This document shows positions 6,651 through 49,677 of a stretch of 57,768 bases of DNA, in pieces. Both the position numbers and the translations under genes were made by a program. The notes beneath the pieces were generated by a model. That model was not told where the DNA came from. It worked only from the letters and a program-made list of their open reading frames with translations, and searched no databases. The stretch is from Clostridiales bacterium (GTDB lineage Bacteria > Bacillota > Clostridia > Lachnospirales > JAISER01). The stretch covers positions 1 through 57,768 of the forward strand of contig JAISER010000013.1 in assembly GCA_031263985.1 (NCBI GenBank), given 5' to 3'. Each line of letters opens with the position of its first letter. The stretch's first letter is position 1.

Positions 6651-7937
6651 TTGCTGGGCAAACTGGCTGTTCTTTCGTTGCTTGTGCTAGCTAACGGTGT
6701 TTTCGCGGCTTCTGAAGCCGCGCTTATATCGCTTAATAAAAGCAAGGTTAAACTCTACGCTGAGCAGGGCGGTAAAAACGCTGACAAGATACTTGCGGCG
6801 TCCGATAATATTAGCAGGTTTTTGTCTACGATACAAATAGGGATTTCTTTTATAGGTTTCGTTTCGGGAGCCTACGCCGCGGACACGTTCGCCGACCCTA
6901 TAGTTTCATTTCTTACGGCCAAAAATCTGCCGGCGCCGAACGCTTTTATCGAACTAGCCGCTTATATCGCGGTTACGTTCATTCTGACTTACGTGATGCT
7001 TGTTATAGGCGAGCTTACGCCGAAACGCATAGGCATAGACAAGTCCATCGCCATAGCGCGCGCCACGATAAGCGTTTTGATGGCGTTGTCATATGTCGCG
7101 GCGCCGTTTGTAAAGCTGCTCGACGTTTCAACAAACGCGGTTTTAAAACTTTTGCGCGTAAACCCTGAGTCAAGCGCGGAAGGGGTAACGGAAGCGGAGA
7201 TACTAATGCTTGTCGCGTCTAACGGTTCCATAGCCGAGAACGAACAAGAAATGATTCATAACATATTCGAGTTTGACAACAAAACCGTGGAGGATGCGTG
7301 CGTGCATCGCACGGACGTTTTCGCCGTGCAGGCGGACGCCGACATAAGAGAAGTCATCAATCTCATCATGGAGGAAAACTATTCGCGCGTTCCTGTGTAC
7401 GGCGAAAATATAGACGATATACTGGGCATATTGCATCTCAAGGATTTAATGAAGCGCATTGTGGTAGACGACTTTAATTTTAACTTGCGCGACATTATAC
7501 ACGAGCCTTATTACGTGTCTTTTTCCAAAAAAACCGATGAAGTGTTTCAGGAAATGAAAGCTAAACGCGCTCATATGGCTGTAGTGATGGATGAATACGG
7601 AGGCACTCTCGGCATAATTACAATGGAAGACCTCGTGGAGGAAATTATGGGTAACATCTTCGACGAACATGACGAGGACGAAGCGCCTGATATAGATCCG
7701 ATTGACGCGAACACGTTTCGTATAAACGGCGCCGCGGAGTTGGAGGATGTGGCCGAATGCCTGAACGTGAATCTGCCCGACGGCGATTACGATACGCTGG
7801 GCGGTTTCATAACCGGTCTTCTAGGTTATATACCCGCTGACGGTCAAACGCCGGAAGTCGAGTTCGCCGGTGTTCTATTTAAAGCTGAGCGCGTGAGAGA
7901 GAAACGCATAGAGTCGGTTATAGCTTATAAGCCGTAA
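6651..7937 (+). CDS. CNNM/DUF21-CBS-CorC_HlyC family membrane protein (hemolysin-like / Mg-Co efflux type)
   Basis: N-terminal 4-TM DUF21 region with ELTPKRIG, a CBS pair, and a C-terminal CorC/HlyC-type domain (DTLGGFITGLLGYIP). Confidence 0.85.
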   Translation: MLGKLAVLSLLVLANGVFAASEAALISLNKSKVKLYAEQGGKNADKILAASDNISRFLSTIQIGISFIGFVSGAYAADTFADPIVSFLTAKNLPAPNAFIELAAYIAVTFILTYVMLVIGELTPKRIGIDKSIAIARATISVLMALSYVAAPFVKLLDVSTNAVLKLLRVNPESSAEGVTEAEILMLVASNGSIAENEQEMIHNIFEFDNKTVEDACVHRTDVFAVQADADIREVINLIMEENYSRVPVYGENIDDILGILHLKDLMKRIVVDDFNFNLRDIIHEPYYVSFSKKTDEVFQEMKAKRAHMAVVMDEYGGTLGIITMEDLVEEIMGNIFDEHDEDEAPDIDPIDANTFRINGAAELEDVAECLNVNLPDGDYDTLGGFITGLLGYIPADGQTPEVEFAGVLFKAERVREKRIESVIAYKP

Positions 7938-8162
7938 GACCTTGGGGCGCTGCCCCAAACCCCGCTAAGGGACTTCGTCCCTTAGGAACCCTTTCCTCGG
8001 GAACTGCGCTTCGCGCAGTTCCCGGAAGACATTAGGTTACGCCCTTGGTCTTGGTCATAATCGCATGATTTTCGTAAACGGCGCGAAGCGCGGTTTACGG
8101 GATAAAGCTTTTTGAAGGAAGTTTGAAGGAAACTTTTTCTCGAAAAAGTTTCCTTCAAGGTC
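7938..8162. repeat. Mosaic palindromic intergenic repeat (hairpin modules; REP/BIME-like)
   Basis: Bounded by gaccttg...caaggtc. Modules: ctaagggacttcgtcccttag, gggaactgcgcttcgcgcagttccc, cgtaaacggcgcgaagcgcggtttacg, gaaggaaactttttctcgaaaaagtttccttc. Reverse complement matches 21087..21306. Confidence 0.9.
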
Positions 8163-9761: not shown

Positions 9762-10666
9762 TTATGTCGCGGATATGTGGCGAGCGCGATATTGACGCGC
9801 GTCTGGATGTTTTTTTGAGTTCCGAGAAAGGCGCATTTTCACGGAACGCTGTTCAGAAGTTTGTCGAAAAAGGGCTGGTTTTTGTGAACGGGAAGCCGGC
9901 TAAATCTAATTATAGGTTAAAAGAGGGCGATGTCGTGGAGTTTTCCCCTCCGCCGCCCGTTGAGCTTGACGCGAAGCCTCAGGATATTCCGCTTGAAATC
10001 GTTTATGAAGACGACGCTCTCATTGTCGTGGACAAACCAAAAGGGTTGGTTGTGCATCCGGCGGCGGGTCACAAAGATGGCACGCTTGTAAATGGTCTTT
10101 TGTTCAGTTGTGGAGGTCTTTCGGGCATAAATGGAGTTACGCGCCCTGGCATAGTGCACAGGATTGATAAAGACACGTCGGGGCTGTTGGTAGTCGCTAA
10201 GACCGATGCCGTCCATATGGATCTTTGCGCCCAATTCGCGGAGCATTCGGTGAAGAGAGCGTATAAGGCGATCGCGCGCGGCTCGTTTAAGGAGGATGAA
10301 GGCGTTATAGACGCGCCTATAGGACGTTGTCCGCGCGATAGAAAAAAAATGGCCGTCAATTTTAAAAATGGCAAGAGAGCTGTTACGCGATACGTCGTTC
10401 TGGAGCGCTTGGGGCGACGCTTCACGTATATTGAGGCGCGGCTGGAAACTGGGCGTACACATCAAATTCGCGTTCACATGGCTCATGTAGGTCGTCCGCT
10501 GTTAGGCGACAATGTCTACGGAAGCGGGCGCCAGGATATATGCGGTCAGACGCTGCACGCGGGCGTTTTGGGATTTACGCACCCGGTTACAGGGAAGCGA
10601 ATGGAGTTTGAGTCGGATTTGCCGAAATATTTTACAAATATACTAAAGAGACTTCGCGCGAATTAA
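9758..10666 (+). CDS. rluD: RluA-family 23S rRNA pseudouridine synthase (RluD-like)
   Basis: N-terminal S4-like domain plus catalytic motif HRIDKDTSGLLVVAK. GTG 9758 overlaps the lspA stop, and ATG 9764 is an alternative start. Confidence 0.9.
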   Translation: MIMSRICGERDIDARLDVFLSSEKGAFSRNAVQKFVEKGLVFVNGKPAKSNYRLKEGDVVEFSPPPPVELDAKPQDIPLEIVYEDDALIVVDKPKGLVVHPAAGHKDGTLVNGLLFSCGGLSGINGVTRPGIVHRIDKDTSGLLVVAKTDAVHMDLCAQFAEHSVKRAYKAIARGSFKEDEGVIDAPIGRCPRDRKKMAVNFKNGKRAVTRYVVLERLGRRFTYIEARLETGRTHQIRVHMAHVGRPLLGDNVYGSGRQDICGQTLHAGVLGFTHPVTGKRMEFESDLPKYFTNILKRLRAN

Positions 10667-10692
10667 CGCTATCATAAATTATTAAAAAAACA

Positions 10693-10721
10693 TTGCGCTG
10701 TAAATTTAATTATTGTATACT
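10693..10721 (+). promoter_or_regulatory. Sigma-A promoter of the aroF-pheA leader
   Basis: TTGCGC (10693-10698), 17-nt spacer ending in TG, TATACT (10716-10721), i.e. an extended -10. Confidence 0.55.
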
Positions 10722-10758
10722 GGGCAAATGTTATAGATTACGACTACGGAGATTTGTG

Positions 10759-10881
10759 ATGCGCGGACAAAAAACAAGAGCGTCTTTTTGGTTTAGCTTT
10801 AGCCGCGGCCTTTTGGCCGACGGCTTGTTTACATGTTTAAAACCGAAAAAAAGCGCCCAAGCTTTTCTACTCCGTCCGTAA
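10759..10881 (+). CDS. Candidate leader peptide (40 aa) with an F-W-F-S-F cluster
   Basis: ATG 7 nt after GGAG. Encodes MRGQKTRASFWFSFSRG...; the aromatic codons at 10786-10800 are followed directly by a hairpin (10801-10826). Lies between the promoter and the terminator upstream of aromatic-amino-acid genes. Hypothetical. Confidence 0.3.
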   Translation: MRGQKTRASFWFSFSRGLLADGLFTCLKPKKSAQAFLLRP

Positions 10882-10923
10882 TTACGTTTTAACGCGCTCA
10901 GCCGCGAATAAACGCCATATATT

Positions 10924-10953
10924 CGGGAAGGTGAAAAGCCTTCCCGTTTTTTT
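10924..10953 (+). terminator. Intrinsic terminator / attenuator upstream of aroF
   Basis: cgggaagg-tgaaaag-ccttcccg followed by T7. The upstream cgaata...tattcggg can pair with the 5' arm as an alternative, antiterminator-like helix. Confidence 0.7.
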
Positions 10954-11003
10954 ATGAAAAAAACGTTTGAAAGATCCATATGCGTCAGGCGTGGGAGGAT
11001 GGC

Positions 11004-12014
11004 ATGATTATAGTTTTGAAAGACGGCGCGGATCCGGGGCAAGTCGAAAGATTGTCTGAGGATCTTGTCGAAAAAGGCGTAAAGCTGTATGAGATACAAG
11101 GCGTGAGCGCAAAGGTTATAGGCGTTGTCGGGGATACGTCGCTTCTGTCCGCTGACGTTCTGATGATGAACGAGTGCGTGTCTAAAGTATTGAAGGTGCA
11201 GGAACCGTATAAGCTTGCGGGGAGGAGGTTTAATCCGGAAAGCGCTGTCGTTGACGTGAACGGCGCGAAGATAGGCGGCGGTGAATTCGCTGTAATGGCC
11301 GGGCCGTGTTCCGTTGAAAGCGAGGATCAAATCTTGTCTATAGCCAAAGACGTGAAGATATCGGGCGCTAAGTTTTTGCGCGGCGGGGCTTTCAAACCGC
11401 GCACGTCGCCTTACGCTTTTCAGGGCATGGGCATGGAAGGGTTGGAGCTGTTGAAGATGGCGCGCGAAAAGACCGGCCTGCCTATCGTTACGGAGATTAT
11501 GTCGGAAAGGCATATCGATGTTTTCGCGCGCGATGTCGATGTAATACAGGTCGGCGCGAGAAATATGCAAAACTTCAACTTATTAAAAGCGATTGGTGAG
11601 ACCGGCAAGACGATATTGCTCAAACGCGGCTTGTCGTCCACTATAAACGAGCTTTTGACGGCGGCCGAATACGCGCTTTTACGCGGCGAAAGCCAGGTTA
11701 TACTTTGCGAGCGCGGCATACGCACATTCGAGACGGCCACGCGAAACACGCTGGACTTGTCAGCCATTCCCGTTTTAAAAGAAAAGTCTCATTTGCCCGT
11801 AATAGCGGACCCTTCGCACGGCGTCGGATATTGGAATTATGTGAGCGCCATGTCGCTCGCCGCCGTAGCCGCGGGAGCCGACGGGCTGATAATAGAGGTC
11901 CACAATTGTCCGGATAAAGCGCTTTGCGACGGCGCGCAGTCTATCACTCCGCACTTATTTGAAAAGCTTATGAAAAAAATCGCTAAGGTACGTGAGGTTA
12001 TTACGGAAGAATAG
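11004..12014 (+). CDS. aroF: 3-deoxy-7-phosphoheptulonate (DAHP) synthase, type I-beta with N-terminal regulatory domain
   Basis: The start MIIVLKDGADP... resembles the ferredoxin-like regulatory domain of Thermotoga-type DAHPS. The catalytic barrel is KDO8PS/DAHPS-like (GPCSVES, KPRTSPY, DPSH). ATG 11004 sits behind GGGAGGA, and the longer ORF start at 10980 is unlikely. Confidence 0.9.
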   Translation: MIIVLKDGADPGQVERLSEDLVEKGVKLYEIQGVSAKVIGVVGDTSLLSADVLMMNECVSKVLKVQEPYKLAGRRFNPESAVVDVNGAKIGGGEFAVMAGPCSVESEDQILSIAKDVKISGAKFLRGGAFKPRTSPYAFQGMGMEGLELLKMAREKTGLPIVTEIMSERHIDVFARDVDVIQVGARNMQNFNLLKAIGETGKTILLKRGLSSTINELLTAAEYALLRGESQVILCERGIRTFETATRNTLDLSAIPVLKEKSHLPVIADPSHGVGYWNYVSAMSLAAVAAGADGLIIEVHNCPDKALCDGAQSITPHLFEKLMKKIAKVREVITEE

Positions 12015-13189: not shown

Positions 13190-13266
13190 TATCCAATCGT
13201 TTCAATAAGCCGCGCGAACGCGCGGCGCGGAGTCCCAAGGTCTTTATGACTTGTTTGGATAGTCAT
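13190..13266. repeat. Dispersed intergenic repeat (same family as 29980..30093 and 57744..57768)
   Basis: tatccaatcgtttca..aagccgcgcgaacgcgcggcg..ggagtcccaaggtctttatgacttgtttggatagtcat. Shares the ggagtcccaaggtct end with the mosaic family. Confidence 0.85.
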
Positions 13267-21086: not shown

Positions 21087-21443
21087 GACCTTGAAGGAAA
21101 CTTTTTCGAGAAAAAGTTTCCTTCAAACTTCCTTCAAAAAGCTTTATCCCGTAAACTGCGCTTCGCGCGGTTTACGAAAACCGCGCGATTGTGATCCGGT
21201 ACGTAGCTTAAGATTTTCCAAAAACGGCGCAAAGCGCCATTTTTGGGGAAAGGGTTCCTAAGGGACAAAGTCCCTTAGCGGGGTTTTGGGGCGGAGCCCC
21301 AAGGTCTGCTTCCTTTAAAAAGCTTTAGTGATCCGGCGCGTAGCTTAAGATTTTCCTGGAACGGCGCAAAGCGCCGCTTCCGAGGAAAGGGTTCCTAAGG
21401 GACGAAGTCTATTAGCGGGGTTTGGGGGCGGAGTCCCAAGGTC
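21087..21443. repeat. Mosaic palindromic repeat, ~1.6 tandem units, inverted relative to 7938..8162
   Basis: 21087..21306 is the reverse complement of 7938..8162. The outer ~100 nt and ~60 nt are near-identical; the central hairpin module differs in sequence but stays palindromic. 21307..21443 repeats the right-hand modules. Confidence 0.9.
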
Positions 21444-22454
21444 TTAACTGGTAGCGTGATATGGAGACCCGGGGCGAGTATCCACATGAACAAATCCTTT
21501 GCGGGGATATCTGATAACGCCTGGCGCTCCTATTTGAATTGCGTAGTTGTAAATATCGTTTACGGAGACTCCGGCGATAGAAATATCAGCGGCTTTGCCC
21601 TGCACATGATAACTATTACGCGCGCCGCCTACGGCTTCATTACGCGCCGGCGTTCGATAGCCGGAACTGATTGTGACAGGCTTGCCGAAATGATCCCTGA
21701 TTTTTTGCAAATAGTCAACTAACTGAGGGTCAATTAATATTTCGTCCGCGCCATCATTGCTTCTAAATTCTTTCACTTTAAAATCTTTGGATAAAGACTC
21801 CTCTCCATTTTCTTTGGCCGAATACTTTTGAACCCCTTTCCCGGGAGTAACAGGAGTTGTAGGAACGCTCGGTTGTGAGGGGGGTTGCGGGCCAGTAACT
21901 TGCCCTCCGGGGTTAGTAGGGCCAACAACTTGCCCTTCGTCAGGGCTAGTAGGGCCAACAACTTGCCCTCCGTTGGGGCTAGTAGGGCCAACAACTTGCC
22001 CTCCGTCAGGGCTAGTAGGGCCATGCCCGTCGCCACCGTTGCCGGAATCGCCGCCGTCATTTTGTCCGCAACAATCACACCCGCCATACGATATCTGCTG
22101 GCCGCTGTCTATAATCCTTACAACGCCGCCTTGAGAGCAGGTCAAAAACCCGTTTTTTGTAAGAGACGGCTTATTTTCTATCAGTAATTTAGGATCTTGC
22201 GGATTTTTCCAGTCCATGGTAAAGATCGGAATGCAGGGAATAGGCGGGCTGGACTTATTGCAAGTTCCAAAACATTTAATGTTCGCTATCGCTTTGCTGT
22301 CCGCTATGTTAAGCTGAGGTTTTCCGTTTAAAAACACTCCATGTGACTTTGGCATATTTATAAAGTCAGGAAAGGAACCCAGTGTGCACGTGACGATGGC
22401 TCCCCTTACGACATACTCGGTAATAACGCTGCTTCCTTGTATAGTCTTATCCAT
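21444..22454 (-). CDS. PAAR-like (DUF4280-type) domain fused to an M15A-type zinc peptidoglycan peptidase; putative cell-wall effector
   Basis: N-terminus MDKTIQGSSVITEYVVRGAIVTCTLGS...KCFGTC...LTCSQGG follows the DUF4280 pattern with conserved Cys. Then a Gly/Pro linker with 11-aa repeats. C-terminus SGYRTPARNEAVGGARNSYHVQGKAADI...VHVD matches the Peptidase_M15_3/YcbK-like motif set. Start ATG 22454 sits behind AAGGAGA; the upstream part of ORF 21444..22547 is a gene relic. Confidence 0.8.
   Translation of the reverse strand: MDKTIQGSSVITEYVVRGAIVTCTLGSFPDFINMPKSHGVFLNGKPQLNIADSKAIANIKCFGTCNKSSPPIPCIPIFTMDWKNPQDPKLLIENKPSLTKNGFLTCSQGGVVRIIDSGQQISYGGCDCCGQNDGGDSGNGGDGHGPTSPDGGQVVGPTSPNGGQVVGPTSPDEGQVVGPTNPGGQVTGPQPPSQPSVPTTPVTPGKGVQKYSAKENGEESLSKDFKVKEFRSNDGADEILIDPQLVDYLQKIRDHFGKPVTISSGYRTPARNEAVGGARNSYHVQGKAADISIAGVSVNDIYNYAIQIGAPGVIRYPRKGFVHVDTRPGSPYHATS
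21887..22023 (-). repeat. 33-bp in-frame tandem repeat (~4 copies) encoding GPTSP[DN]GGQVV linker units
   Basis: Full units at 21912-21944, 21945-21977 and 21978-22010, plus partial units on both sides. Confidence 0.9.
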
Positions 22455-22600
22455 TGGCGTAGCTCTCCTTTCAAATTTCATAAAGCGGCTTCCCAGTAAT
22501 TCCAACCGCATCATATGTATTGTTCTTAACCTGTTTTCTCGCCGCACGTTGTTTCGCTGTTTATCACTGAAAGCTCCGCTCGATGAAAGGCGTGGAATTA
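22455..22600 (-). pseudogene. Relic of the 3' end of a paralogue of gene 25801..26307
   Basis: Nucleotide homology to 25805..25960 (..ataaacagcg..gcggcga..ttaagaacaatacatatgatgcggttggaattactggg..). It translates as NRLRTIHMMRLELLGS, versus NKLRTIYVTRLELLES in the intact gene. Confidence 0.7.
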
Positions 22601-22743
22601 ATTCGTAAGCAAGCTTATGTCCGCATGTAGGTGAAGCGTACCGCTAAAATTAAGGATTTTAGAGGAGATATTAAACAGGCTCTTAGTTTAACGCCGTCTT
22701 ATCCGTTGTAAACGGGATCTTTAGGGTACAGTTTCTTCATCCT

Positions 22744-23666
22744 TTATCTATCGGGGTACGCTGGCGTGCCGTAGCCCATGATATTATTGGATTTCAGAGG
22801 GTAGCTTCTCCGGCGGACACAGTCGTCGGAATTGCCTTCAATGGTATGGACATAGCCGTCTTTGACGTATTCCACGATTCCAACATGGTCATCAGTTCTC
22901 CCGCCATCGTGCCAGTTGAAAAAGATAATGTCGCCAGGTTGTGGATTGCAACCTCCGTTTATCCATTGATCGCGGGATTTAAACCATGTTATGGCGTTAA
23001 TGCAGTAGAGAATTTTGGGATGATTCCGCTTTGGATGTATCCGCACTGGTCGGCTACCCAGCTTACAAAGCAAGCGCACCACGGCACGTAGCTAGGAAAA
23101 CCATACCAAAGCCAATAAGGTTTTCCGTCATCCTTCCTGTCGACTCGACCGATCTCCTTGATCGCGTTTTGTACCATTGTAGCTCCATTACCAGTTGAAA
23201 GCCTATCGTCGCCGGGCATCTCAGAGTCTTGTCGATCTCCTCATCCACCGCCTGATGAACCGGCCGTTACTTCCTTTGTCATCGGCATCATTGTAAATTT
23301 TGACAATCGTATTGTCCGCTATCTATAATTTTTTATAACGCCGCCCTTAAAGCAAACCAAAAACGCGTCTTTTGTAAAAGCCGTTTTGCCTTCTATTTTT
23401 AATTTAGGATATTTGAAATTTAACCACAAAGGAAAAATTTTTGGATCGCACATCGACTTGGTAGCTCCGCAAAATCCGAAACATTTAATATTCTCGCCAG
23501 CTTTACAATCCGCTATGTTAAGCTGAGGTTTCCCGCCGCTTAAAGATATTCCATGCGAATTCGGCATATTTATAACGTCAGGAAAGGCGCCCATCGAGCA
23601 AATGACGACAGCGCCCCATACGACATATTCGGTAATAGCGTTGCTTTCTTGTATAGTCTTATTCAC
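22744..23666 (-). pseudogene. Decayed DUF4280-type PAAR-like domain + CHAP amidase/peptidase effector (multiple frame disruptions)
   Basis: ORF 23319..23666 is a DUF4280 domain that stops at GGVIKNYR*. Removing one A from the A6 run (23329-23334) restores GGVIKIIDSGQ as in the paralogues. ORFs 22989..23219 (catalytic WCACFVSW) and 22744..23082 (HVGIV...GNS) are the two halves of a CHAP domain, split near the A4 run at 23012-23015. Further stops lie in the linker. Confidence 0.8.
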
Positions 23667-23950
23667 TGGCGTATCAATTCCTTTCGCGATTACAGCCGTT
23701 TGACATATGATGGCGCGCTCCGCGCGTCATACGCTTTCCAACTCCTCCGCGTCAAATGAGCAAATGTTTCTTCGTAAAGCGATTTCCAATAATTCCAACC
23801 GCATCGAATAATATCGTTCTTAAATTATTTTTATTTTAAATATTGCCGCAGTTCGGTGCGCCATACGCCAATAAAGGAGAAAAACTTGTTCTTTTAATCA
23901 AAATTGCAGTTTTATATTTGCGCTTGTAATTATAAATTTCAATTAGCAAT
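23667..23950 (-). pseudogene. Decayed copy of gene 25801..26307 (3' part) upstream of the decayed effector
   Basis: 23667..23845 aligns almost base-for-base with 25742..25925, with a 1-nt indel. 23900..23950 (gttttatatttgcgcttgtaattataaatttcaat) aligns with 26070..26105. No intact ORF. Confidence 0.75.
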
Positions 23951-24000
23951 AAAATTTATGACTATAAAATTAATTTATGACCGATATTTCCCCAAGTCGG

Positions 24001-24747
24001 TTATTTGGGACTATTTCTTAAAAGGTCTTTAAGGTCTGAGTAATCAATCTCAAATTCCGCATGATCCCCAATTGCGTGCGTAACGCCCAAACTGATTCCT
24101 AGCGCCTTATCGGTAAAGTAACTAAACGCGTTCGCCGAGTTTCTTTCATTTATGTTATCGGAATTTTTCAATATTTCCACTAAGTCATAAGTATTGATGT
24201 CCTTTTTTACCAATTCTTCCGCTGAATTTAATCCAGAATCCCAGGCTACATATTTTGCTTCTTTAATTTGTTTTACTAGTTCGTTATTTATGTCAATAAA
24301 ATCGGCTAGCCCAATTTTCTCAGCGGCATTTAAATCTAGGTTAGTAGTATAAAACGCGTTTAAAGGATAGGCGGTTTTATTTGGATGAACTACTCCGGAG
24401 TATACGATGCTAAGCGACTTAGAATCACATAGTTTAATATCATAGTTGATATCGGCGCTAAAGTTTTCTTGAGCGACATACAAATCTAATATTTTTAACG
24501 CTTCGTACTTTATTAAATCATTAATTTTTTCTTGTTTAGTCGTATCGCTCATGCTTGATAATTGAGGGTAAAATATCTTTATGGAATTATCAACATAGCT
24601 TGATAAATTTACTTGATACGCAGGGTTATTAATTTCTTGCGCTGCATTATTGGTTTGATTATAGGGGGTTATTGCTCCTGCACCGCACGAAGTCGATAAT
24701 AATGTAGAAGATAGACATAAAATAACAAGCGATTTTTTAAGTAACAT
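24001..24747 (-). CDS. Lipoprotein with DUF4163/DUF3298 (RsiV/PdaC-like) architecture; candidate immunity protein
   Basis: Signal peptide plus lipobox (LLSTSC). IFYPQLSSMSD..KINDLI is the DUF4163-type start, and the C-terminus FSYFTDKALGISLGVTHAIGDHAEFEIDYSDLKDLL is DUF3298-like. Lies immediately downstream of the GH19-type effector. RBS GGAGG. Confidence 0.7.
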   Translation of the reverse strand: MLLKKSLVILCLSSTLLSTSCGAGAITPYNQTNNAAQEINNPAYQVNLSSYVDNSIKIFYPQLSSMSDTTKQEKINDLIKYEALKILDLYVAQENFSADINYDIKLCDSKSLSIVYSGVVHPNKTAYPLNAFYTTNLDLNAAEKIGLADFIDINNELVKQIKEAKYVAWDSGLNSAEELVKKDINTYDLVEILKNSDNINERNSANAFSYFTDKALGISLGVTHAIGDHAEFEIDYSDLKDLLRNSPK

Positions 24748-24811
24748 TTTATACCTCCATCAGTTCCGTTACTGCGGAAGGTTACCTCATTATTATATTA
24801 TCAAGCGCACA

Positions 24812-25804
24812 TCATTTTATTATTTCAAGCGTTCGTTCATAACAATCTCGTCTTTCTTCATAATGATTAGGCGTATTCTTGCTATATCTGTCGCCCAGGT
24901 TGACAGCTTTAGATATTTCAAGCGTTTGCTGATCGATACTAGTTCCTTTTAAACTATCAACAATATCATTCATTCCATTGTTGCGCCACCAAAACCCTGC
25001 CGCTTCCCAGGGATATTTTTCGGAAACATAATCTACGCCGTCCATTATCTTTTGGTCACCCATATAATCCGCAAACGCTTGATAATTGGCCCTGCCAGTT
25101 AGCTGAATATAACCTGCTCCTTTATATTTAGGCCCATCTCCAGGTTGCGTATTCCCAAGATCGGCTCGTCCTTCATATGCTTTTCCATTCGCTAGTTCCT
25201 TGGTATAAATGCCCAAACCGGATTCATGCATAGCCTGAGACATAAAGTGTCGTATCTTTTCAGGCGTGGTTATACCGTATTTTTCCAATGCATTATTTAG
25301 TCCTTTAACCATTTCGTCGGTTATAGAACTTTCATCCCAACCTAGCTGTTTTAACTGATCAGCGGTAACATAAATGTTTTGCCTGCGCTGACCGCTATGT
25401 ATAATTCTCACAATGCCGCCCATTGCGCAAATCAAAAACGCATCTTTTGTAAGAAGCGGTTTGTTATTTGTCATTGATTTAGGGCAGATGGGGCCTCTCC
25501 AAAGAGGAAAAAGAAATATAGGCACACATGGACGACTTAACTTTTTGCAAATTCCGAAACATTTAATATTCGGTCCGACTTTACTATCCGCAATATTAAG
25601 CACCGGTTTTCCGTTTATCGTATGTCCATGTGAAAACGGTATATTTATAACGTCAATGTTGGAACCCAGAGAGCAAGTCGCGAGGGTGCCCCTGACGACA
25701 TATTCAGTAATAACGCAGCTTTCTCGTATAGTCTTATTCACTGGCGTATCAATTCCTTTCGCGATTGCAGCCGTTTGACATATGATGCGCGCTCCGCGCG
25801 TCAT
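24812..25804 (-). CDS. PAAR-like (DUF4280-type) domain fused to a GH19-like (chitinase/lysozyme-type) peptidoglycan hydrolase; putative effector
   Basis: N-terminal ..NKTIRESCVITEYVVRGTLATCSLGS..KCFGIC..LICAMGG. C-terminal HFMSQAMHESGLG...YKGAGYIQLTGRANY is typical of GH19/COG3179-type muramidases. ATG 25804 is ATGA-coupled to the upstream gene. GTG 25741 aligns with the starts of the two paralogues and may be the true start. Confidence 0.8.
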   Translation of the reverse strand: MTRGARIICQTAAIAKGIDTPVNKTIRESCVITEYVVRGTLATCSLGSNIDVINIPFSHGHTINGKPVLNIADSKVGPNIKCFGICKKLSRPCVPIFLFPLWRGPICPKSMTNNKPLLTKDAFLICAMGGIVRIIHSGQRRQNIYVTADQLKQLGWDESSITDEMVKGLNNALEKYGITTPEKIRHFMSQAMHESGLGIYTKELANGKAYEGRADLGNTQPGDGPKYKGAGYIQLTGRANYQAFADYMGDQKIMDGVDYVSEKYPWEAAGFWWRNNGMNDIVDSLKGTSIDQQTLEISKAVNLGDRYSKNTPNHYEERRDCYERTLEIIK

Positions 25805-26307
25805 ACGCTTTCCAGTTCCTCCGTGTCAAATGAGCAAATGTTTCTTCGTAAAGCGCTTTCCAGTAATTCTAGCCGCGTCACATATATTGTTCTTAATTTG
25901 TTTTTTATTTTAAATATGCTTTCGCCGCGCGTCGCCGCGCTGTTTATGACTATTTTTTTAATCGTTTTGTCGGGGTAATATTCGCTGGATTCGTCAAGGC
26001 ATTGAATGTCAGGTAATTCTATGCGCCAATAGAGGCGGGAAACCTGCTTTTCCTCTTCCACTAAAACGACGGCTTTATATTCGCGTTTTTGATTATAAAT
26101 TTCAATCACTGACTTAAACTCGTCGCTGAACGCATGGAGCGGCGATTCGATAAAATCGGGATAATTGACGTTTTTAGCTTCTTTTACGCAAAAAACGCTG
26201 ATATCCGCGGCTTTATTAGGGGGATCATTAGCGGAACTGATTATTTTGGGCATATTCGCCATATTTGAGCATTGTTTAATTAGAAAATATTTCCCTATTA
26301 CAGCCAA
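25801..26307 (-). CDS. Hypothetical 168-aa protein (adaptor/chaperone or immunity-like); partner gene of the DUF4280 effectors
   Basis: TTG start 7 nt after AAGGTGA, overlapping both neighbours. No signal peptide. Decayed copies precede the other two effector genes. Family not recognised with confidence (DUF1629/Imm-like pattern is only an impression). Confidence 0.6.
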   Translation of the reverse strand: MAVIGKYFLIKQCSNMANMPKIISSANDPPNKAADISVFCVKEAKNVNYPDFIESPLHAFSDEFKSVIEIYNQKREYKAVVLVEEEKQVSRLYWRIELPDIQCLDESSEYYPDKTIKKIVINSAATRGESIFKIKNKLRTIYVTRLELLESALRRNICSFDTEELESV

Positions 26308-27440
26308 ATTATATCACCTTTTTGATCATCAGTCAGGGTCTCGTTATTTTTGTATTCATTATCTATAACGGCGCCTTTAAGGTTGGCGCCCGTAAAATCG
26401 CAACTATGTAAATCAGCGCCTCTAAAATCGCAGTCGGCGAAGTTTCCGTAAGACAGGTTGGCTGAATTTAGCCGCGCGTCTTTGAAGCTCGTTTTTATAA
26501 AGAACAGTTCGGCCATGTCGTCGCCGGGCGCGGCGGCGCAGTTGACGCGCGTTAAATTGGCGTGATTGAGCGAAGAGCCAGTGAAATTGCATTCCGCTAT
26601 GTCGCTTCCCGTTAAGTTGACTCTGTCCATATCGCAGTTTAGAAATTTAGCTCCTTTAAGGTTGCAAAAACCCATATCGCATTGCGCGAACGACACGTTT
26701 TGGAAACGCGAACGCATCATACTCACCCCGGAGTAGTCGGCGCGAGAAATGTCCAAATCTTTGTAATGCCTGAAAACATAGGCGTAATCATACTTTTGCT
26801 CAAAAAATTTCTTTACGTCCTCGTCGATGTTAAAGCTTTCGTCTTCGAGCCATACGCTTTCAGTCAAATCAAAATACTCCCCTACCCTTATATCGAACAA
26901 ATCATTTTTTTTGATAAGCCGGAATTCTTCAAGAGAGGCTATTTCATCCGCGCATTTACGGCAAACCGCTGTCAGATATTTGATATATTCCGGAAATTTG
27001 TCGTAGGCTATTTTTTCAACGTCATAGCGCGTAACCGCGCCGGCGTATTTTTTGCCCGTTTCTTCCAGTTCTCGCTCATATTGAGACAGGCCGGAAAAGA
27101 GCCAGTTGGCCAAATATTCGTTCTCGACCGGCTTTGCGTCGGCATACCAATTTTTGTTGTACGCCGTTAAAAGGCACCTTGAGTTTTTAAGCTTTACGCC
27201 GCTTCGCAAAGCGCTCAGAGCGACGAAAGCCGTCTTTTCTTCTCCATTGTCCAGTTTGTCTTCGCTTTCACGCTGAAAGCTCTCTATTTTGATGAAAATC
27301 TCTTTGAAACAATGAACAATGCCAGCGAGTATATCGTCAAAATTTTCGTTTATGTATGTTCTTAATTCCTTCATTTTCTCTATATGAAGCGGATTGGCTT
27401 CATTATTTTTAAAACTGTCTATAACGTCCTCTCGAGACAT
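26298..27440 (-). CDS. Pentapeptide-repeat protein with ~230-aa unknown N-terminal domain
   Basis: The C-terminal ~140 aa is made of tandem A(D/N)LXX pentapeptides (ANLSYGNFADCDFRGADLHSCDFTGANLKGA). The start ATG directly abuts the stop of the VgrG-like gene (TAGATG). Confidence 0.85.
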   Translation of the reverse strand: MSREDVIDSFKNNEANPLHIEKMKELRTYINENFDDILAGIVHCFKEIFIKIESFQRESEDKLDNGEEKTAFVALSALRSGVKLKNSRCLLTAYNKNWYADAKPVENEYLANWLFSGLSQYERELEETGKKYAGAVTRYDVEKIAYDKFPEYIKYLTAVCRKCADEIASLEEFRLIKKNDLFDIRVGEYFDLTESVWLEDESFNIDEDVKKFFEQKYDYAYVFRHYKDLDISRADYSGVSMMRSRFQNVSFAQCDMGFCNLKGAKFLNCDMDRVNLTGSDIAECNFTGSSLNHANLTRVNCAAAPGDDMAELFFIKTSFKDARLNSANLSYGNFADCDFRGADLHSCDFTGANLKGAVIDNEYKNNETLTDDQKGDIIWL

Positions 27441-28859
27441 CTAATTGGTTTTAACCTCCTTGCCTTTGATAACGATATCGTCAGACATCTTGATAGAGCT
27501 GCCCTTGGATATAATATTCAATTTCTCTTGCGCTTCTATATTTATGTTGCGCGCCTTCATCTCTATATCATTTGACGCTGTCAGCGATATCTTATCGTTA
27601 CTGTTAAGGTTTACGCTGCCGTCATCGTTCATGCTCATAAATACAGTTCCGTCCTTGGCTATGATGTCTATGCCGTCAGGACGCAGCTTTATCTCTTTGC
27701 CAAACGCCGTTCTAAGATATTTCACATCAGGATCAGCCATGCGATGTTCCGGGTCCAATTGTTCGACGTTTTCATTAGGGTCATGGGGCTTTACGGAACT
27801 TATCGCCATAGCCTCGTCTTCAGAGTTTTTCGGGTGGTACAGCCTTATGATGTCGCCTTTTTCCGGCATGCAATACCATCCGGTCTCTTCTTTAGACGCG
27901 TACATGCTGGCGTAAGGATACCAAAAAGCTTTGGCGACGTCTTGAGTTTCATCTATTTCGAGATGTATTTTAATGTTGTCGCGGGCCACGTCCAAAACCT
28001 TGCCGAATATTGAGCAGCCTGATATATTGTCATTGGGGACGAACGGCGTCAGAGTCCCGTTTTTTAAGGATAGCTCGCACTCATTTTTTATAACCGCGTC
28101 TTCATATTCAAAGCTGGTCTCAACAACGTGCATAGGGAGCGTGTTAAACGTTACGCCGTCTCCCAAGCTGAAAAATTTCTCCGTCTCCAGATGAATATAT
28201 GCGAAGTCAGATGAGGAAACGCTGGGAACGTCGCTTAATATGGCTCTATAGGCGTTTAAATCCTTTTCTATCATATAATTCCACGCCATCAAGCTTCCCT
28301 TCGCGGTGTCGGGCAGTCCGAAATAGAATTGAGGCCCCTTGCCTCTTATGTCAGGTATCAGAGGAACGTTGAAATGGCTCGCCACGCGCTTTAAAAATTC
28401 CCAATCAGTTTCGTTATATTGTATAATCGGTTTTCCTATCTTCTTGCCGTTCGTGGTTTTGTCCATAAAGCTTGCGTTAGGGTAGTCTTGCGTTATAGTT
28501 TTCACGAGATCTTCATAGGTCATATTTTTATCCTGGAAGGATTTGCTTTCGGATTCTATGTCCATCAAGTAGGTGTGCGATAAGCATGTTAATTCGACGT
28601 AATTAACGGAACGTATGGTTTTAACCGCGGCGCGCGTTATTACGCCGGTAAAGATGGTCTCACCGAAATTAGAGGCTTCGACGGATCTGTTTAACGTCAG
28701 TTTGTCCGCGTAATTGTCCTTGTCTTCCTCTTCAAGCCTGGCGCAAAGCGTTAGCGTGGAATGTTCGTTTAGCGTTTGAAATATTTTAAGGCTTAGGATG
28801 GTCAATTCCTCAAAACCCTTTAACACTATGTCGCCGTGCAATATTATATTGTCAGACAT
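27441..28859 (-). CDS. VgrG-like spike protein (phage late-control gpD/gp27-like + gp5 OB-fold + C-terminal beta-helix)
   Basis: IQYNETDWEFLKRVASHFNVPLIPD is the gpD/VgrG hallmark region. GKVLDVARDNIKIHLEIDE...WYPYASMYAS..GWYCMPEKGDIIRLYHP..DEAMAISSV is a gp5/gpV OB-fold. The tail has repetitive beta-strand units (DGIDIIAKDGTVFMSMNDDGSVNLNSNDKISLTASNDIEMKA..). RBS AAGGGAG. Confidence 0.8.
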   Translation of the reverse strand: MSDNIILHGDIVLKGFEELTILSLKIFQTLNEHSTLTLCARLEEEDKDNYADKLTLNRSVEASNFGETIFTGVITRAAVKTIRSVNYVELTCLSHTYLMDIESESKSFQDKNMTYEDLVKTITQDYPNASFMDKTTNGKKIGKPIIQYNETDWEFLKRVASHFNVPLIPDIRGKGPQFYFGLPDTAKGSLMAWNYMIEKDLNAYRAILSDVPSVSSSDFAYIHLETEKFFSLGDGVTFNTLPMHVVETSFEYEDAVIKNECELSLKNGTLTPFVPNDNISGCSIFGKVLDVARDNIKIHLEIDETQDVAKAFWYPYASMYASKEETGWYCMPEKGDIIRLYHPKNSEDEAMAISSVKPHDPNENVEQLDPEHRMADPDVKYLRTAFGKEIKLRPDGIDIIAKDGTVFMSMNDDGSVNLNSNDKISLTASNDIEMKARNINIEAQEKLNIISKGSSIKMSDDIVIKGKEVKTN

Positions 28860-28886
28860 TTATAATCACTCCCTTCGATATATCTT

Positions 28887-29492
28887 TTACAGCGCTTCCG
28901 TTGTTTTCATAATGCCGTAAAAAAGAGGCTTCATACGTTCCGTATCTTTTTTAAGACAGTTTAAGTTGCAGGCGAAAAGTTTGCCTTTAAGCGACAAGAT
29001 AAACACAAGATTGTACATTTGCCCGCCTATCACGAAGTTTTCGAACGAATAATACGCTATAGCGTGTTCGCCGCTCATAAAATGGCCTTTATCGGTTATT
29101 TTGGACGCGGGGTTGACAGCCGAGTAGGCGGCTATCATATAGTCCCTTACGCTGACGACGTCCTCTTCCTTTACGTTCTCTTGCGTATGATTTAACCCTA
29201 TGTTTACGGAGTCCTTTTTGTCCATATATATTATTTGGGGCCGCGATTCGACGGGATATTTAACCTTGGCGGCTTTGGCCGGCATTTTTATGAAGTCGGC
29301 GGGGATACGCATTTTTATTTCGCCGTCAAAAAACAGCGACTCCGTCATATCCATATCAAGCTCGTTCAGCGAAACATGAAGATTTTTTATCTGTTCAATC
29401 ATATCTTCCAATAGCCGGTCTTGGTCTTCTTGATTCTTTTTATTTTGTTCAATCATATTGACTATGAATTCATCCATAAACTGTTCTTCCAC
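28887..29492 (-). CDS. Hypothetical 201-aa protein, first gene of the spike operon (possible DcrB/DUF1795-like chaperone)
   Basis: GTG start 6 nt after GAAGGAGG. Acidic coiled-coil N-terminus followed by an alpha/beta domain. The DUF1795-like call is a weak impression only. Confidence 0.55.
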   Translation of the reverse strand: MEEQFMDEFIVNMIEQNKKNQEDQDRLLEDMIEQIKNLHVSLNELDMDMTESLFFDGEIKMRIPADFIKMPAKAAKVKYPVESRPQIIYMDKKDSVNIGLNHTQENVKEEDVVSVRDYMIAAYSAVNPASKITDKGHFMSGEHAIAYYSFENFVIGGQMYNLVFILSLKGKLFACNLNCLKKDTERMKPLFYGIMKTTEAL

Positions 29493-29604
29493 GACGCGCC
29501 TCCTTCAGTTTTGTACGTTTTGAGGATTAAACTGTCCTGCAATTTTAAGTTCTTTTTGTAAAATAAGCGAAAAATCCATTTTCAGCTTATATCTTAATAC
29601 TATC

Positions 29605-29700
29605 AGCGCGTACAGGCGCTGTCAACGAGCCGAGACGATCTTCTGGGCAAAACGCCGTTTTTATCAGCGGTTCCGCTATGACGACCGATATCGACAAATA
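29605..29700 (+). pseudogene. Possible relic of a holin 5' end
   Basis: 16-nt exact match gtacaggcgctgtcaa (29610-29625) to the intact holin gene (30150-30165). Patchy similarity follows (ttctgggc, ccgct..atg) with indels and stops. Confidence 0.3.
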
Positions 29701-29979
29701 TAGGATAGTATTAAAAAATATTTTTAATTGTGATAGCGTTGATATAACGCCGATCAGTCGTTCATTACGCGTGACCGCATAAGCGCGCTCCGCACGGATC
29801 CTCGCGCGAATCCCTTTCCATATATTCGCAATATAATATAATCTCTGACCCGTTGTCAAGATATGTGTAACGAACAGCGGTTTTTTTGTAACGAACGGAG
29901 CGGCGGCAAAAAATAATATTATTTACGCCGCGTCTTTAGAGCGCTCAGATAATGGACTTCAGAAAAAAATTAATATGAA

Positions 29980-30093
29980 TATCCAATCGTTTCATGAAGC
30001 CGCGCGAATGCGCGGCGTGGGGTCCGGGGTCGAAGACCCCGGCGGGGTTTGGGGCGGAGTCCCAAGGTCTTTATGATTTGTCTGGATAGTTAT
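29980..30093. repeat. Dispersed intergenic repeat (family of 13190..13266) with an extra hairpin module
   Basis: atccaatcgtttcatgaagccgcgcgaatgcgcggcg + inserted ggtccggggtcgaagaccccgg hairpin + gggtttggggcggagtcccaaggtctttatgatttgtctggatagttat. Confidence 0.85.
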
Positions 30094-30128
30094 TAAAATT
30101 AATTGGATTTAAGTGAGGAACGTACTAT

Positions 30129-30521
30129 ATGAAAGACATGAGAATAACGGTACAGGCGCTGTCAAGCGCGGCGGGGGCTTTTCTAGGCTGGTTTCTGGGC
30201 GGGTTGGACGGATCGGTCGCCGCTTTAGCTATGTTTACGTCGGCTGATGTCGTAACGGGCGTTATGTGCGGAATACGCAATAAAAACCTGTCCAGCGAAA
30301 AAAGTTGGCCAGGCATATCTAAAAAGATACTTACGTTTATAATGGTAGGCGTAGCGCATACCATCGACGCTTACATAATCGGCGAAGGACAGGCTTTCCG
30401 TATGGCGACCGTATTTTTTTATCTGGCGCATGAGGGGTTGTCGCTTGTTGAAAACGCCGCGATAATCGGATTGCCTGTTCCCGAGAAGATAAAAGACGCG
30501 CTGGCGCAACTGAGAAAATAA
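30129..30521 (+). CDS. Phage-type holin (holin family 4 / toxin-secretion-lysis holin type)
   Basis: 130 aa with 3-4 TM segments. Sequence is typical of LL-H/TcdE-class holins (SADVVTGV..., ISKKILTFIMVGVAHTID, FFYLAHEGLSLVENAAIIGLPVP). RBS TGAGGAA. No endolysin or other phage gene is adjacent. Confidence 0.8.
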   Translation: MKDMRITVQALSSAAGAFLGWFLGGLDGSVAALAMFTSADVVTGVMCGIRNKNLSSEKSWPGISKKILTFIMVGVAHTIDAYIIGEGQAFRMATVFFYLAHEGLSLVENAAIIGLPVPEKIKDALAQLRK

Positions 30522-45002: not shown

Positions 45003-45704
45003 ATGGATGAAGTATCGGAAATATCTATCGAACAGCTTGCCGCGCTTGCGTTTAAAAACAAATGGTTTATCGTTTTAAGCGCTGTTTTAGGTCTTTTGGC
45101 CGCTTTCGCTCTGTCAATGTTCGTTTTTGAAAAAAAATACGAATCGTCAGTTAAATTGTACGTTTATACGCCGCCGAGCGAACAGCAGAGTCCGTCTGTG
45201 GATATGAACGCTTTGAATTACGCCCAAAAAGTCGTAAATACATACATCGAAATGCTCTCAACCAGAAAGTTTCGAAATAAGATAATTGAAGAGACGCAGC
45301 TTGACTACGGAGAAGAAGACTTAAGAAAAATGATAAAATTTGAGACGCTCAACCAAACCGAAGTCTTTATGGTTACCGTTACGTCTCCCAAGCCCGAGCA
45401 TTCCCATGACATAGCGAACGCTATCAATTCGCTAGCTCCTGTAACCATATCGGAAATTGAAGAGAGCGCGCGGCTTAAAAACGTCGACGAAGCCGTTTTT
45501 GACGATGCCCCCGTTTCGCCTAATTTTAGAATCAATATTATAATTGGGGTTATCGCGGGTCTCGGAGTCTCTGTCCTTATCGTTTTTTTCAAGGATCTGT
45601 TCGACAATAAGATAAAGAACGGCGAAGACGTCGCCAATAAGTACGGCCTGAACATTTTGGCGGAAATAGCGGATATAAGCAAGCTGGAGCGAACCAAGGG
45701 CTGA
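45003..45704 (+). CDS. Polysaccharide chain-length determinant / BY-kinase transmembrane modulator (Wzz, CpsC/YveK type)
   Basis: Two-TM Wzz topology and an N-terminal FKNKWFIVLSAVLGLLAAF-type segment. Precedes the cognate kinase. Confidence 0.85.
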   Translation: MDEVSEISIEQLAALAFKNKWFIVLSAVLGLLAAFALSMFVFEKKYESSVKLYVYTPPSEQQSPSVDMNALNYAQKVVNTYIEMLSTRKFRNKIIEETQLDYGEEDLRKMIKFETLNQTEVFMVTVTSPKPEHSHDIANAINSLAPVTISEIEESARLKNVDEAVFDDAPVSPNFRINIIIGVIAGLGVSVLIVFFKDLFDNKIKNGEDVANKYGLNILAEIADISKLERTKG

Positions 45705-45735
45705 CCGAATATATTGATGGAGAGATGTTGACGTT

Positions 45736-46434: not shown

Positions 46435-46455
46435 GCGTCCGTTGATTTGTAAAAT

Positions 46456-47184: not shown

Positions 47185-47226
47185 TATTTATTTAAAACAT
47201 ATATAGCATTTAGGAGGGTTTACTGT

Positions 47227-47829: not shown

Positions 47830-47856
47830 TCTTATTTTGTACGGAGCGTTTGCGAT

Positions 47857-48531: not shown

Positions 48532-48548
48532 CGAGGTTTTGAGATTTT

Positions 48549-49433: not shown

Positions 49434-49519
49434 TTACGCCGTTTAGGAGATGTTGACTTTGTCGGAAATACTTCCAAATGAAATTAGCGCGGCGTTTGAT
49501 TTTATTTCGGGACCCTGAG
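49384..49519 (+). repeat. Direct duplication, copy 1 (3' end of 48549..49433 + truncated 5' end of the sugar transferase)
   Basis: Aligns with 49678..49816 at a 294-bp offset and roughly 80% identity by eye. It contains aggagatgttgactttgtcggaaatacttccaa, then a short frame ending in TGA. Confidence 0.8.
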
Positions 49520-49677
49520 ATAAATCCGCTTTGGCCAAAATCGGCGCTGGCTCGAAAAACGCTGACGCTATTGATTAATTCACCGATTTGAACATTATAT
49601 AATATACAAAAGCATGTCGAGTCTCTCCTGACCGCTTATCATATCAATGTTGGGGTAGTTACGGTTTGATCGTCATC

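Follow-up and report, generated by a model that had tools for sequence, protein, structure and literature searches.

The subject of this analysis is an 8.6-kb island within 57,768 nucleotides (nt) of DNA from a Clostridiales bacterium (contig JAISER010000013.1 of GenBank assembly GCA_031263985.1, positions 1 to 57,768; this whole stretch is called the window). The island is a single minus-strand operon spanning 29492..21444, in which a VgrG-type spike gene and three accessory genes are followed by an array of PAAR-like (DUF4280) tip genes joined to peptidoglycan hydrolases. The locus is probably a cargo island of the auxiliary ("orphan") kind, belonging to a polymorphic-toxin system that occurs across Bacillota and has a phage-type spike at its centre. 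The genes and remnants of the island, together with one neighbouring gene, are as follows.

28887..29492, minus strand: u201, the first core gene, encoding a protein of 201 amino acids (aa) with an N-terminal helix and a modelled PsbP/Mog1/DcrB-type alpha/beta fold.
27441..28859, minus strand: VgrG1-type spike of 472 aa, with a predicted gp27-like hub, gp5 oligonucleotide/oligosaccharide-binding (OB) fold and short beta-helix.
26298..27440, minus strand: pentapeptide-repeat protein (PRP) of 380 aa, with an N-terminal alpha/beta domain of ~215 aa and a C-terminal beta-helix.
25801..26307, minus strand: u168, a protein of 168 aa encoded directly upstream of the first DUF4280 gene, which it overlaps.
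24812..25804, minus strand: effector 1, DUF4280 joined to a GH19-type lysozyme/endolysin, assigned by Pfam, PHROG and PDB comparison.
24001..24747, minus strand: a protein of 248 aa, encoded after effector 1, that bears a signal peptide and LLSTSC, a lipobox-like motif.
23667..24000, minus strand: u168 3' end in a second copy that has decayed and is recognised by direct repeats; it reads RLELLEIALRRNICSFDAEELESV up to a stop, then a frameshifted DUF4280 leader.
23319..23666, minus strand: DUF4280 domain of cassette 2, an open reading frame (ORF) of 115 aa in which a frameshift ends the domain just ahead of I.DSGQ.
22744..23318, minus strand: CHAP amidase/peptidase pseudogene (Pfam), once fused to cassette 2.
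22455..22547, minus strand: third u168 3' remnant (MMRLELLGSRF...), upstream of cassette 3.
21444..22454, minus strand: effector 3, DUF4280 with a linker and an intact Peptidase_M15_3 domain; the longest ORF extends to 22547.
30129..30521, plus strand: neighbouring gene for a holin of the Phage_holin_4_1 or "toxin secretion" type (Pfam, 125 bits).

An earlier reading of this DNA, made from its letters alone (the sequence-only reading), had described a single coupled gene string, and its ORFs, order, strand and spacing were all confirmed. The gaps between the first five genes of the operon are 27, 0, -10 and -4 nt, a Shine-Dalgarno-like sequence precedes every start (u201 starts with GTG after GGAGG), and seven ORFs of the operon are intact. 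The GC content is 42-44% in the core genes, 34-42% in the cassettes and 47.7% in the whole window, the lowest value of the island being that of the 248-aa protein gene (34%). The two spot GC values given in the sequence-only reading are exact (0.317 and 0.633), but the contrast drawn from them is overstated when set against the gene-wise GC.

The spike protein is matched by Phage_GPD with 36.1 bits (Pfam cut-off 30.1), and a gp27/gpD-like hub is found in it accordingly. Its scores for Phage_base_V (21.1 against a cut-off of 23.8 bits) and DUF2345 (20.6 against 30.7 bits) lie below threshold; PF04717 is present in many VgrG homologues. A profile of the VgrG family aligns over positions 298-469 to 8gra, 7aef, 7b5h and Pvc8 with E values from 6e-21 to 3e-8. 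Among solved T6SS and eCIS spikes, 8gra (6e-21), AlgoCIS 7aef, Pvc8 and Afp8 are matched, and it is through this family profile that the gp5 OB fold and the beta-helix are found, the window protein itself being sub-threshold. The motif QY.ETDW.F..R.AS is invariant in 16/16 family members. Judged from its sequence, the window VgrG is a genuine gp27/gp5 spike, and the profile search bore out the name VgrG-like that had been given to it. Its homologues, which carry the NCBI label "contractile injection system protein, VgrG/Pvc8 family", fall into 506 clusters in the protein database, and every named cluster is from Bacillota. The closest of them, in Defluviitaleaceae metagenome-assembled genomes, show 56% identity, and homologues of ~35% identity occur in Lysinibacillus, Aneurinibacillus, Paenibacillus, Brevibacillus and many Clostridium. 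A metagenome scan for near relatives gave five contigs, mostly short; in dataset SRR14710921 an identical VgrG lies beside a u201 of 99.5% identity.

The three paralogous N-terminal domains behind the spike are matched by DUF4280 (PF14107) with 71.9, 64.1 and 87.9 bits (cut-off 26.3) and are 50-62% identical to one another. Four Cys columns are invariant across these three paralogues and five relatives, and four metal-binding Cys residues are the defining trait of the IglG-type PAAR-like family (PMC5349215). All three domains also match NF041248 IglG weakly. They are predicted to be PAAR-like cones with four conserved Cys, in agreement with the DUF4280 assignment made before any profile search.

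The domains that follow these cones are wall hydrolases by sequence comparison, and all three cargo types named in the sequence-only reading (a GH19-like enzyme, a decayed CHAP domain and an M15-type zinc peptidase) were upheld. Effector 1 starts either at ATG 25804, coupled to u168, or at GTG 25741 after the ribosome-binding site (RBS) AAAGGA. Its GH19-like domain is matched by PHROG 181 endolysin (1.8e-34), by the PWe2 endolysin (1.6e-20) and by the SPN1S endolysin 4ok7, compared with a weak match (1e-3) to GH19 chitinases (chitinase C). As Pfam Glyco_hydro_19 is unmatched, the lysin of effector 1 is placed at the superfamily level. The CHAP domain of cassette 2 scores 47 bits on the fragment 22744-23082 and is not intact, as no fewer than three lesions have accumulated in its cassette. 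One frameshift falls in an A-run where DUF4280 ends, in-frame stops interrupt the linker, and a further frameshift splits CHAP; the catalytic Cys motif (PWCACF) is encoded in one reading frame and the His motif (DHVGIV) in another. Effector 3 is matched by Peptidase_M15_3 with 87 bits and by MepK with 74.7 bits, the latter under the equivalog cut-off. Its metal-binding H..D and H motifs (SYHVQGKAAD, FVHVD) are present, and the domain is assigned to the MepK-like L,D-endopeptidase type. The Gly/Pro-rich linker of this protein, a spacer whose length is variable, contains three 33-nt tandem repeats at 21909-22040 that encode GPTSP(D/N)GGQVV. No other fusion of DUF4280 to M15 was found among the best 150 of 15,545 phmmer hits in 1.84 billion representative proteins.

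A 466-aa DUF4280 protein of Defluviitalea phaphyphila (locus L062, 13160-14560), which contains LLLAIIFQEGTGSF, has a C-terminal half that, judged from its sequence, resembles a wall hydrolase or lysozyme-like domain. On account of this fusion, a hydrolase-tipped DUF4280 may mark the Defluviitaleaceae-like clade nearest to the window.

The 248-aa protein encoded after effector 1 has no relative in the PDB. The domain DUF3298/DUF4163 that had been considered for it was not confirmed, a match to PdaC/DUF4163 at E=0.06 being the single weak hit. Its position makes it a candidate extracytoplasmic immunity protein for effector 1; more speculatively, it may resemble RsiV, an anti-sigma factor that binds lysozyme.

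The repeats at the junctions of the array bear on how the tips were acquired. Upstream of cassette 2, the terminal ~118 nt of u168 recur together with the beginning of the DUF4280 gene (23713-23810 against 25787-25884, 90% identity); a second segment lies 200 nt upstream (23900-23943 against 26063-26106, 80% identity). Upstream of cassette 3 this stretch recurs in part, positions 22488-22537 repeating 25855-25904 with 84% identity. These repeats of the u168/DUF4280 junction imply that every new tip came, or was duplicated, as a unit of the u168 3' end and a DUF4280-enzyme gene. The extra tip cassettes are therefore read, from the sequence, as duplications carrying the u168 3' end, the redundant u168 pieces of which have then decayed; this reading is new here. 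Decaying, displaced cassettes behind an active one are normal for polymorphic-toxin loci.

Three further proteins accompany spike and tip. A model of u201 generated with AlphaFold 2 (AF2) from 42 homologues has a pLDDT of 92.5, and Foldseek against the PDB matched it to PsbP (E 1.7e-8), to the EagT6-Tse6 complex (6xrf, 8e-6) and to SciW (6xrr), with E values ranging from 3e-7 to 8e-4 for DcrB, PA0094, EagT6 and SciW. According to this model, the fold of u201 is the same as in Eag/DUF1795 chaperones from type VI secretion systems (T6SS), which is recognised here for the first time, and u201 is a candidate chaperone for loading of the spike or effector. In Pfam, u201 is matched by PsbP alone (E=0.02) with DUF1795 unmatched, and UniRef labels some of its homologues DUF1795. 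A PsbP/MOG1-like adaptor has been described by Zhang et al. 2012 (PMC3482391). Since no transmembrane segment is present at the N-terminus of the window effectors, the client of u201 would have to differ from the Eag client. A PDB sequence-profile search gave no match at E<0.05 for u201 or u168, and kinship between these two proteins was rejected (hhalign probability 1.5%).

The PRP protein is matched by Pfam Pentapeptide with 72 bits, and its beta-helix is found in an AF2 model with a pLDDT of 84. Its N-terminal domain is conserved and occurs without the repeat domain in several loci. A Pfam scan of residues 1-213 gave neither DUF2169 nor any other match. An identity of PRP as a DUF2169 accessory was rejected; Foldseek returned pentapeptide proteins alone, in a whole-chain search that the repeat domain dominates, and a remote relation in fold may exist. 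Concerning u168, PF07791 (Imm11) is matched by 23/35 members of its family (best E 1e-9), and the Clostridium butyricum homologue is named DUF1629 by PGAP; the u168 family is accordingly predicted to belong to the Imm11/DUF1629 superfamily, an assignment that is also new. Imm11 is known as an immunity protein against AHH nucleases (PMC12077181). An immunity role of this style was not found for the window u168, the window having no nuclease toxin. Because it is a fixed core gene that overlaps the tip gene whatever the toxin type, u168 is read instead as a putative chaperone, or other partner, for the PAAR-like tip.

The locus, which the sequence-only reading had called minimal, is not a one-off. 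When one genome was scanned for each species, the five-gene core u201-VgrG-PRP-u168-DUF4280 turned up at no fewer than 576 places in Bacillota genomes, and the system occurs in hundreds of Firmicutes species. The best 80 of these encoding places were used as a sample of related loci, in which the presence of core genes was scored by tblastn with the window proteins as queries. Core genes were found in 59-73 of the 80 loci (u201 in 59, PRP in 67, u168 in 69, DUF4280 in 69-72), and their order is nearly always kept. The genes for u201, VgrG, the N-domain/pentapeptide-repeat protein, u168 and DUF4280 form one conserved unit. Neither the 248-aa protein nor CHAP nor the holin has a homologue in any of the 80 loci. 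Almost every locus contains a second VgrG paralogue (VgrG2) directly after a stand-alone DUF4280 of ~135 aa (for example, L002 13651-15336, L086 13672-15204 and L087 17028-19895), and the window copy is atypical in having none. In related loci, toxin and immunity genes come after VgrG2 or are fused to it. Examples are a WHH nuclease (L002), PT-TG/Cytotoxic, GH-E and SUFU proteins (a complete Lysinibacillus genome) and an HNH toxin with Imm30 (C. butyricum pCBU1); SUKH, SUFU and Imm30 are found as immunity genes among the relatives. In some loci VgrG2 is much longer, with 955 aa in that of C. butyricum and as many as 2039 aa in one ORF, which suggests toxin fusions.

The VgrG family was matched in none of 50,697 phage genomes. 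Among 2.9 million IMG/VR contigs, three weak or edge matches were obtained, of which one is a family member, at a contig edge. A prophage origin was therefore rejected, the family being essentially missing from both collections. One IMG/VR contig (L094) carries a distant VgrG-like gene (28% identical) and a CHAP-domain protein, at 2126-2386 and 9854-11278; this VgrG-like gene may represent a genuine relative of the family spike in a phage or tailocin.

Another set of genes adjoins the core in 38 of the 80 loci, in Bacilli and Clostridia alike, with the core usually directly downstream of it (L002 178-9343; L086 1-9266; L082 1-5366 and 7860-8795). This partner cluster consists of two FHA proteins, the first of which has two hydrophobic segments, a PP2C phosphatase, a PP2C-like/transmembrane/TPR protein, and proteins called u427, u229, u881 and u260 after their approximate lengths in aa; its proteins contain one or two hydrophobic segments at most. 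The same cluster, with an additional Ser/Thr kinase, is present in L082, a relative from a metagenome with 53% identity to the window in its VgrG. The protein u881 (881 aa) contains the motifs AIDFGTSNT and VIDCGGGTTDLS, is weakly matched by NCBIfam DnaK (E=0.0025) and by a PDB profile of DnaK/Hsp70 (E ~0.2), and looks like an ATPase of the Hsp70/actin fold. For u427, u229 and u260, no match was found in Pfam, NCBIfam, PADLOC or PDB sequences (E<0.05), and PHROG gave none of known function; cryptic structural homologues of contractile parts may be present among these three. A known anti-phage defence system was rejected as an identity, with one negligible PADLOC hit. The partner cluster is a candidate apparatus or regulatory module. 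Main and separate auxiliary loci occur together in one genome in the pairs L014/L015, L011/L049, L048/L076 and L067/L052, and no gene of the cluster lies in the window, so that the window locus is assigned to the auxiliary type.

Contractile genes were sought around several of the related loci. In L082, L084 and L086, Pfam tables covering +/-10 kb around the VgrG gene contain no sheath, tube or baseplate family. For the auxiliary type, a Pfam scan of 148 flanking ORFs from 14 loci without the partner cluster gave none among the recurrent families listed, the flanks encoding ABC transporters and SUKH immunity proteins besides a mixture of housekeeping functions. The window itself was compared by tblastn with main-cluster proteins and its ORFs were inspected by eye, which yielded no injection machinery, as the sequence-only reading had stated. 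In the window and the loci examined, the canonical T6SS set (TssBC, Hcp, TssEFGK, TssJLM and ClpV) was not found, and the same scans found neither sheath, tube and gp25/J baseplate nor tape measure and AAA+ ATPase, the parts expected of an extracellular contractile injection system (eCIS), a tailocin or a prophage tail.

The arrangement of the island resembles several known systems in part. In T6SS islands of "synteny type C", vgrG is followed by DUF2169-pentapeptide, DUF3540 and DUF4150/PIPY effector genes (PMC11883445). The window has the same order of spike, pentapeptide-repeat accessory, small protein and PAAR-like effector, but its tip is DUF4280 instead of DUF4150 and the family of its small protein is Imm11-like instead of DUF3540. 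A PsbP/DUF1795-fold protein beside the spike (as with EagT6 and SciW) and auxiliary islands apart from the main cluster are also T6SS-like features, whereas the window effectors, unlike Eag clients, have no prePAAR or transmembrane segment. Furthermore, the host is a monoderm, and Hcp, TssBC, a baseplate, TssJLM and ClpV are absent near the related loci examined. The monoderm, Gram-positive-type envelope is supported by a sortase encoded in the window and by relatives that are all Bacillota. The H1-T6SS of Pseudomonas aeruginosa is switched by Fha1, PppA and PpkA, and the FHA and PP2C proteins of the partner cluster, with the kinase in L082, recall that switch. The four-Cys DUF4280 cone is shared with Francisella T6SSii, where IglG caps a short VgrG; that system differs in having the sheath IglA/B and the tube IglC, in its diderm host, and in the extension of IglG, which is N-terminal and not a C-terminal enzyme. 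A wall-degrading enzyme carried on a spike complex, as predicted for the window, is also known from T4 gp5-gp5.4 and Vibrio cholerae VgrG3. There the enzyme belongs to the spike protein; in the window it is on the PAAR-like tip, in three alternative versions. Finally, the spike has significant sequence similarity to eCIS Pvc8/Afp8, but no tail or eCIS genes lie in the window.

Loci of this kind have been noticed before. DUF4280 in Gram-positives was already seen in 2016 (Lays et al., PMC5349215), and PAAR_H2 (DUF4280) beside Phage_GPD in Firmicutes without T6SS or eCIS genes is reported by Zhang et al. 2021 (PMC8651086). In the loci described by these two sources the genes are paired as in the window and the phylum is shared, so that the window locus falls within their set, and the speculation offered in the sequence-only reading is already contained in them. 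Compared with the accessible portions of both papers, the five-gene core, the partner cluster, the Eag-like and Imm11-like accessories and VgrG2 are new, and the window copy stands apart from the Firmicutes set by its lack of VgrG2 and by hydrolases fused to the tip. The claim that such a locus had not been characterised holds as regards function, no functional study having been found in the literature, but not as regards the pairing, which was noticed in PMC8651086 and PMC5349215.

The spike-tip module proposed for a monoderm-type genome, with its VgrG spike, PAAR-like hydrolase tips and accessories, was upheld, and it can be placed in a model of action. The DUF4280 tips would serve as alternative caps for a VgrG trimer, one at a time and each bearing a peptidoglycan hydrolase (the GH19-type muramidase, what was formerly a CHAP enzyme, or the M15 peptidase). 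The tip would be held and loaded by u168, to which it is translationally coupled, by PRP and by u201, roles that may parallel those of the DUF2169-pentapeptide/DUF3540/PIPY and Eag accessories in T6SS. The hydrolases would then act on the walls of competing Gram-positive cells, or open the wall for the spike, while the 248-aa signal-peptide protein would shield the producer at the outer face of its membrane. New tips would be gained by duplication or recombination at the 3' end of u168 and the 5' end of DUF4280, with displaced cassettes left behind. Export would be encoded outside the window, most likely by the FHA/PP2C/(kinase)/TPR/Hsp70-like cluster.

Several observations weigh against this assignment as an auxiliary cargo island. 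No secretion or interaction experiment on the family was found in the literature. In the whole 58 kb of the window, tblastn detected neither VgrG2 nor the main cluster, and as these are missing and one cassette is dead, the island could be inactive. DUF4280-hydrolase fusions are rare, a C-terminal extension being present in 6/69 tip genes of related loci, and effector 3 has no immunity-like gene after its stop. The window u168 has no PF07791 match and is 22-35% identical to the family members that do. As PRP shows no likeness to DUF2169, the analogy to T6SS accessories consists of gene order and the pentapeptide domain only.

It is possible, with a probability well below even, that the family represents a new Gram-positive apparatus, one that would build, arm and eject a phage-type VgrG/PAAR-like spike with neither contractile sheath nor tube. 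As part of the same tentative proposal, the machine would be the FHA/PP2C/kinase-regulated cluster, with an 880-aa Hsp70/actin-like ATPase as its sole recognisable motor, and the window would show that it can be armed in trans, with wall-degrading tips from auxiliary islands. A truly non-contractile mode would amount to a new principle of secretion, whereas the discovery of a cryptic contractile core would extend T6SS/eCIS biology to Firmicutes. Spike-based (T6SS-like) toxin delivery in monoderms has been an open question since 2016. What had been the co-occurrence of two genes becomes, with the present analysis, a defined system of three parts (a loading core of five genes, a candidate apparatus or regulatory cluster of eight genes with no sheath or tube recognised in it, and auxiliary islands), carried by such tractable species as Paenibacillus polymyxa, Lysinibacillus sphaericus, Brevibacillus laterosporus and C. 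butyricum. To this, the window adds a cargo class, peptidoglycan hydrolases fused to a PAAR-like tip, and it also illustrates tip exchange.

Of the rival explanations, decay survives best. The island could be a remnant that has lost its delivery function, with ORFs becoming pseudogenes or hydrolases co-opted for autolysis, and the lesions of the CHAP cassette, the two decayed u168 copies, the missing VgrG2 and main cluster, and the M15 effector without an immunity gene would all fit this explanation. We consider it unlikely, since seven undamaged ORFs are preceded by RBSs and overlap or abut at their ends, the invariant family residues are all kept in VgrG and the DUF4280 domains, and decayed cassettes behind an active one are usual in polymorphic-toxin loci, a pattern also cited to earlier work (PMC3482391).

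The hydrolase tips could also be tools for breaching the wall rather than toxins, like T4 gp5 lysozyme or tail lysins; they would make a local gap in the peptidoglycan of the producer or of the target for the passage of the spike, an idea that is compatible with the cargo-island model. Relatives with plain DUF4280 tips carry nuclease or RNase toxins and immunity genes, so that hydrolases are no general requirement; moreover, the turnover of cassettes is toxin-typical and the gene after effector 1 encodes an exported protein that resembles an immunity factor. These points make pure breaching improbable, even though the enzymes are positioned at the spike tip itself, three distinct bond specificities are predicted, the thick monoderm wall is an obvious obstacle and 2/3 cassettes have no immunity gene.

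Equally improbable is that the locus forms the cargo end of a conventional contractile machine whose genes lie elsewhere in the genome, be it an eCIS, a tailocin or a prophage tail, which the sequence-only reading had proposed as the loading target. The spike is closest to T6SS and eCIS spikes, its homologues are named for the VgrG/Pvc8 family, and PAAR-like cones are known on contractile systems only (PMC5349215). Against these likenesses stand the lack of sheath, tube and baseplate families around the loci scanned, the absence of the family from phage genomes, and the FHA/PP2C/TPR/Hsp70-like cluster as the conserved partner instead. An independent Firmicutes survey reached the same conclusion (PMC8651086).

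The holin lies 636 bp upstream of the operon, in divergent orientation, and the family assignment made for it was confirmed. A self-contained weapon, in which cytoplasmic VgrG-PAAR-hydrolase complexes exit through this holin (by lysis or in a non-lytic, TcdE-like manner) and digest neighbours from outside, is quite unlikely: the gene belongs to the "toxin secretion/phage lysis" family and has no endolysin of its own, the three cargo domains are endolysin-like without signal peptides and wall hydrolases need no injection, but adjacency is what the idea draws on, the holin is not conserved with the cargo (0/80 loci), no holin recurs among the families listed for the 148 flanking ORFs, its GC (0.50) is that of the host flanks and not of the island, and the conserved spike, chaperone and accessory set would be left without a role. 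Membership of the holin in the module is not supported.

Returning to the surroundings of the operon, two kinds of non-coding features were noted.

29493..29860, minus strand: upstream non-coding region with two sigma-70-like promoter matches, by consensus only.
7937-7958 (minus strand), 13222-13243, 21286-21307, 21423-21444 and 30049-30070: dispersed intergenic copies of a 22-nt palindrome.

The promoter matches are TTGACA-18-TATATT at 29859-29830 and TTGACA-17-TAGTAT with TG at 29625-29597, and the total of sigma-70-like matches does not exceed the shuffle expectation. Rfam scanning gave no family in this region or elsewhere in the window, and a tRNA scan of the window gave none. The palindrome, TTGGGGCGGAGYCCCAAGGTCT, forms the hairpin TTGGGGC/GCCCCAA and occurs in five copies where zero are expected by chance. 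Two copies lie in a tandem unit of ~137 nt (21226-21307 and 21363-21444) that touches the stop codon of the M15 gene, and another lies 59 nt ahead of the holin. A mobile island bounded by repeats or an attachment site was rejected, given the copies at 7.9 kb and 13.2 kb; as the palindrome brackets the island yet sits in other intergenic regions, it is regarded as a repetitive extragenic palindromic (REP)-like element.

The large flanking ORFs across the 58 kb are of housekeeping type, as the sequence-only reading had it; this was judged by eye and with Pfam, a full profile scan not having been made. They were read as arg, pro, aro, lspA, rluD, an RND pump, Nif3, polA, coaE, pfkA, secA, prfB, mutS2, comEA, a two-component system and a capsule cluster with a sortase. 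The capsule/exopolysaccharide cluster, at 45003-51357, is not related to the island; it has a GC content of 40-43% and encodes Wzz, a CpsD-like ATPase, a CpsB phosphatase, the sortase, a sugar transferase and a nucleotidyl transferase.

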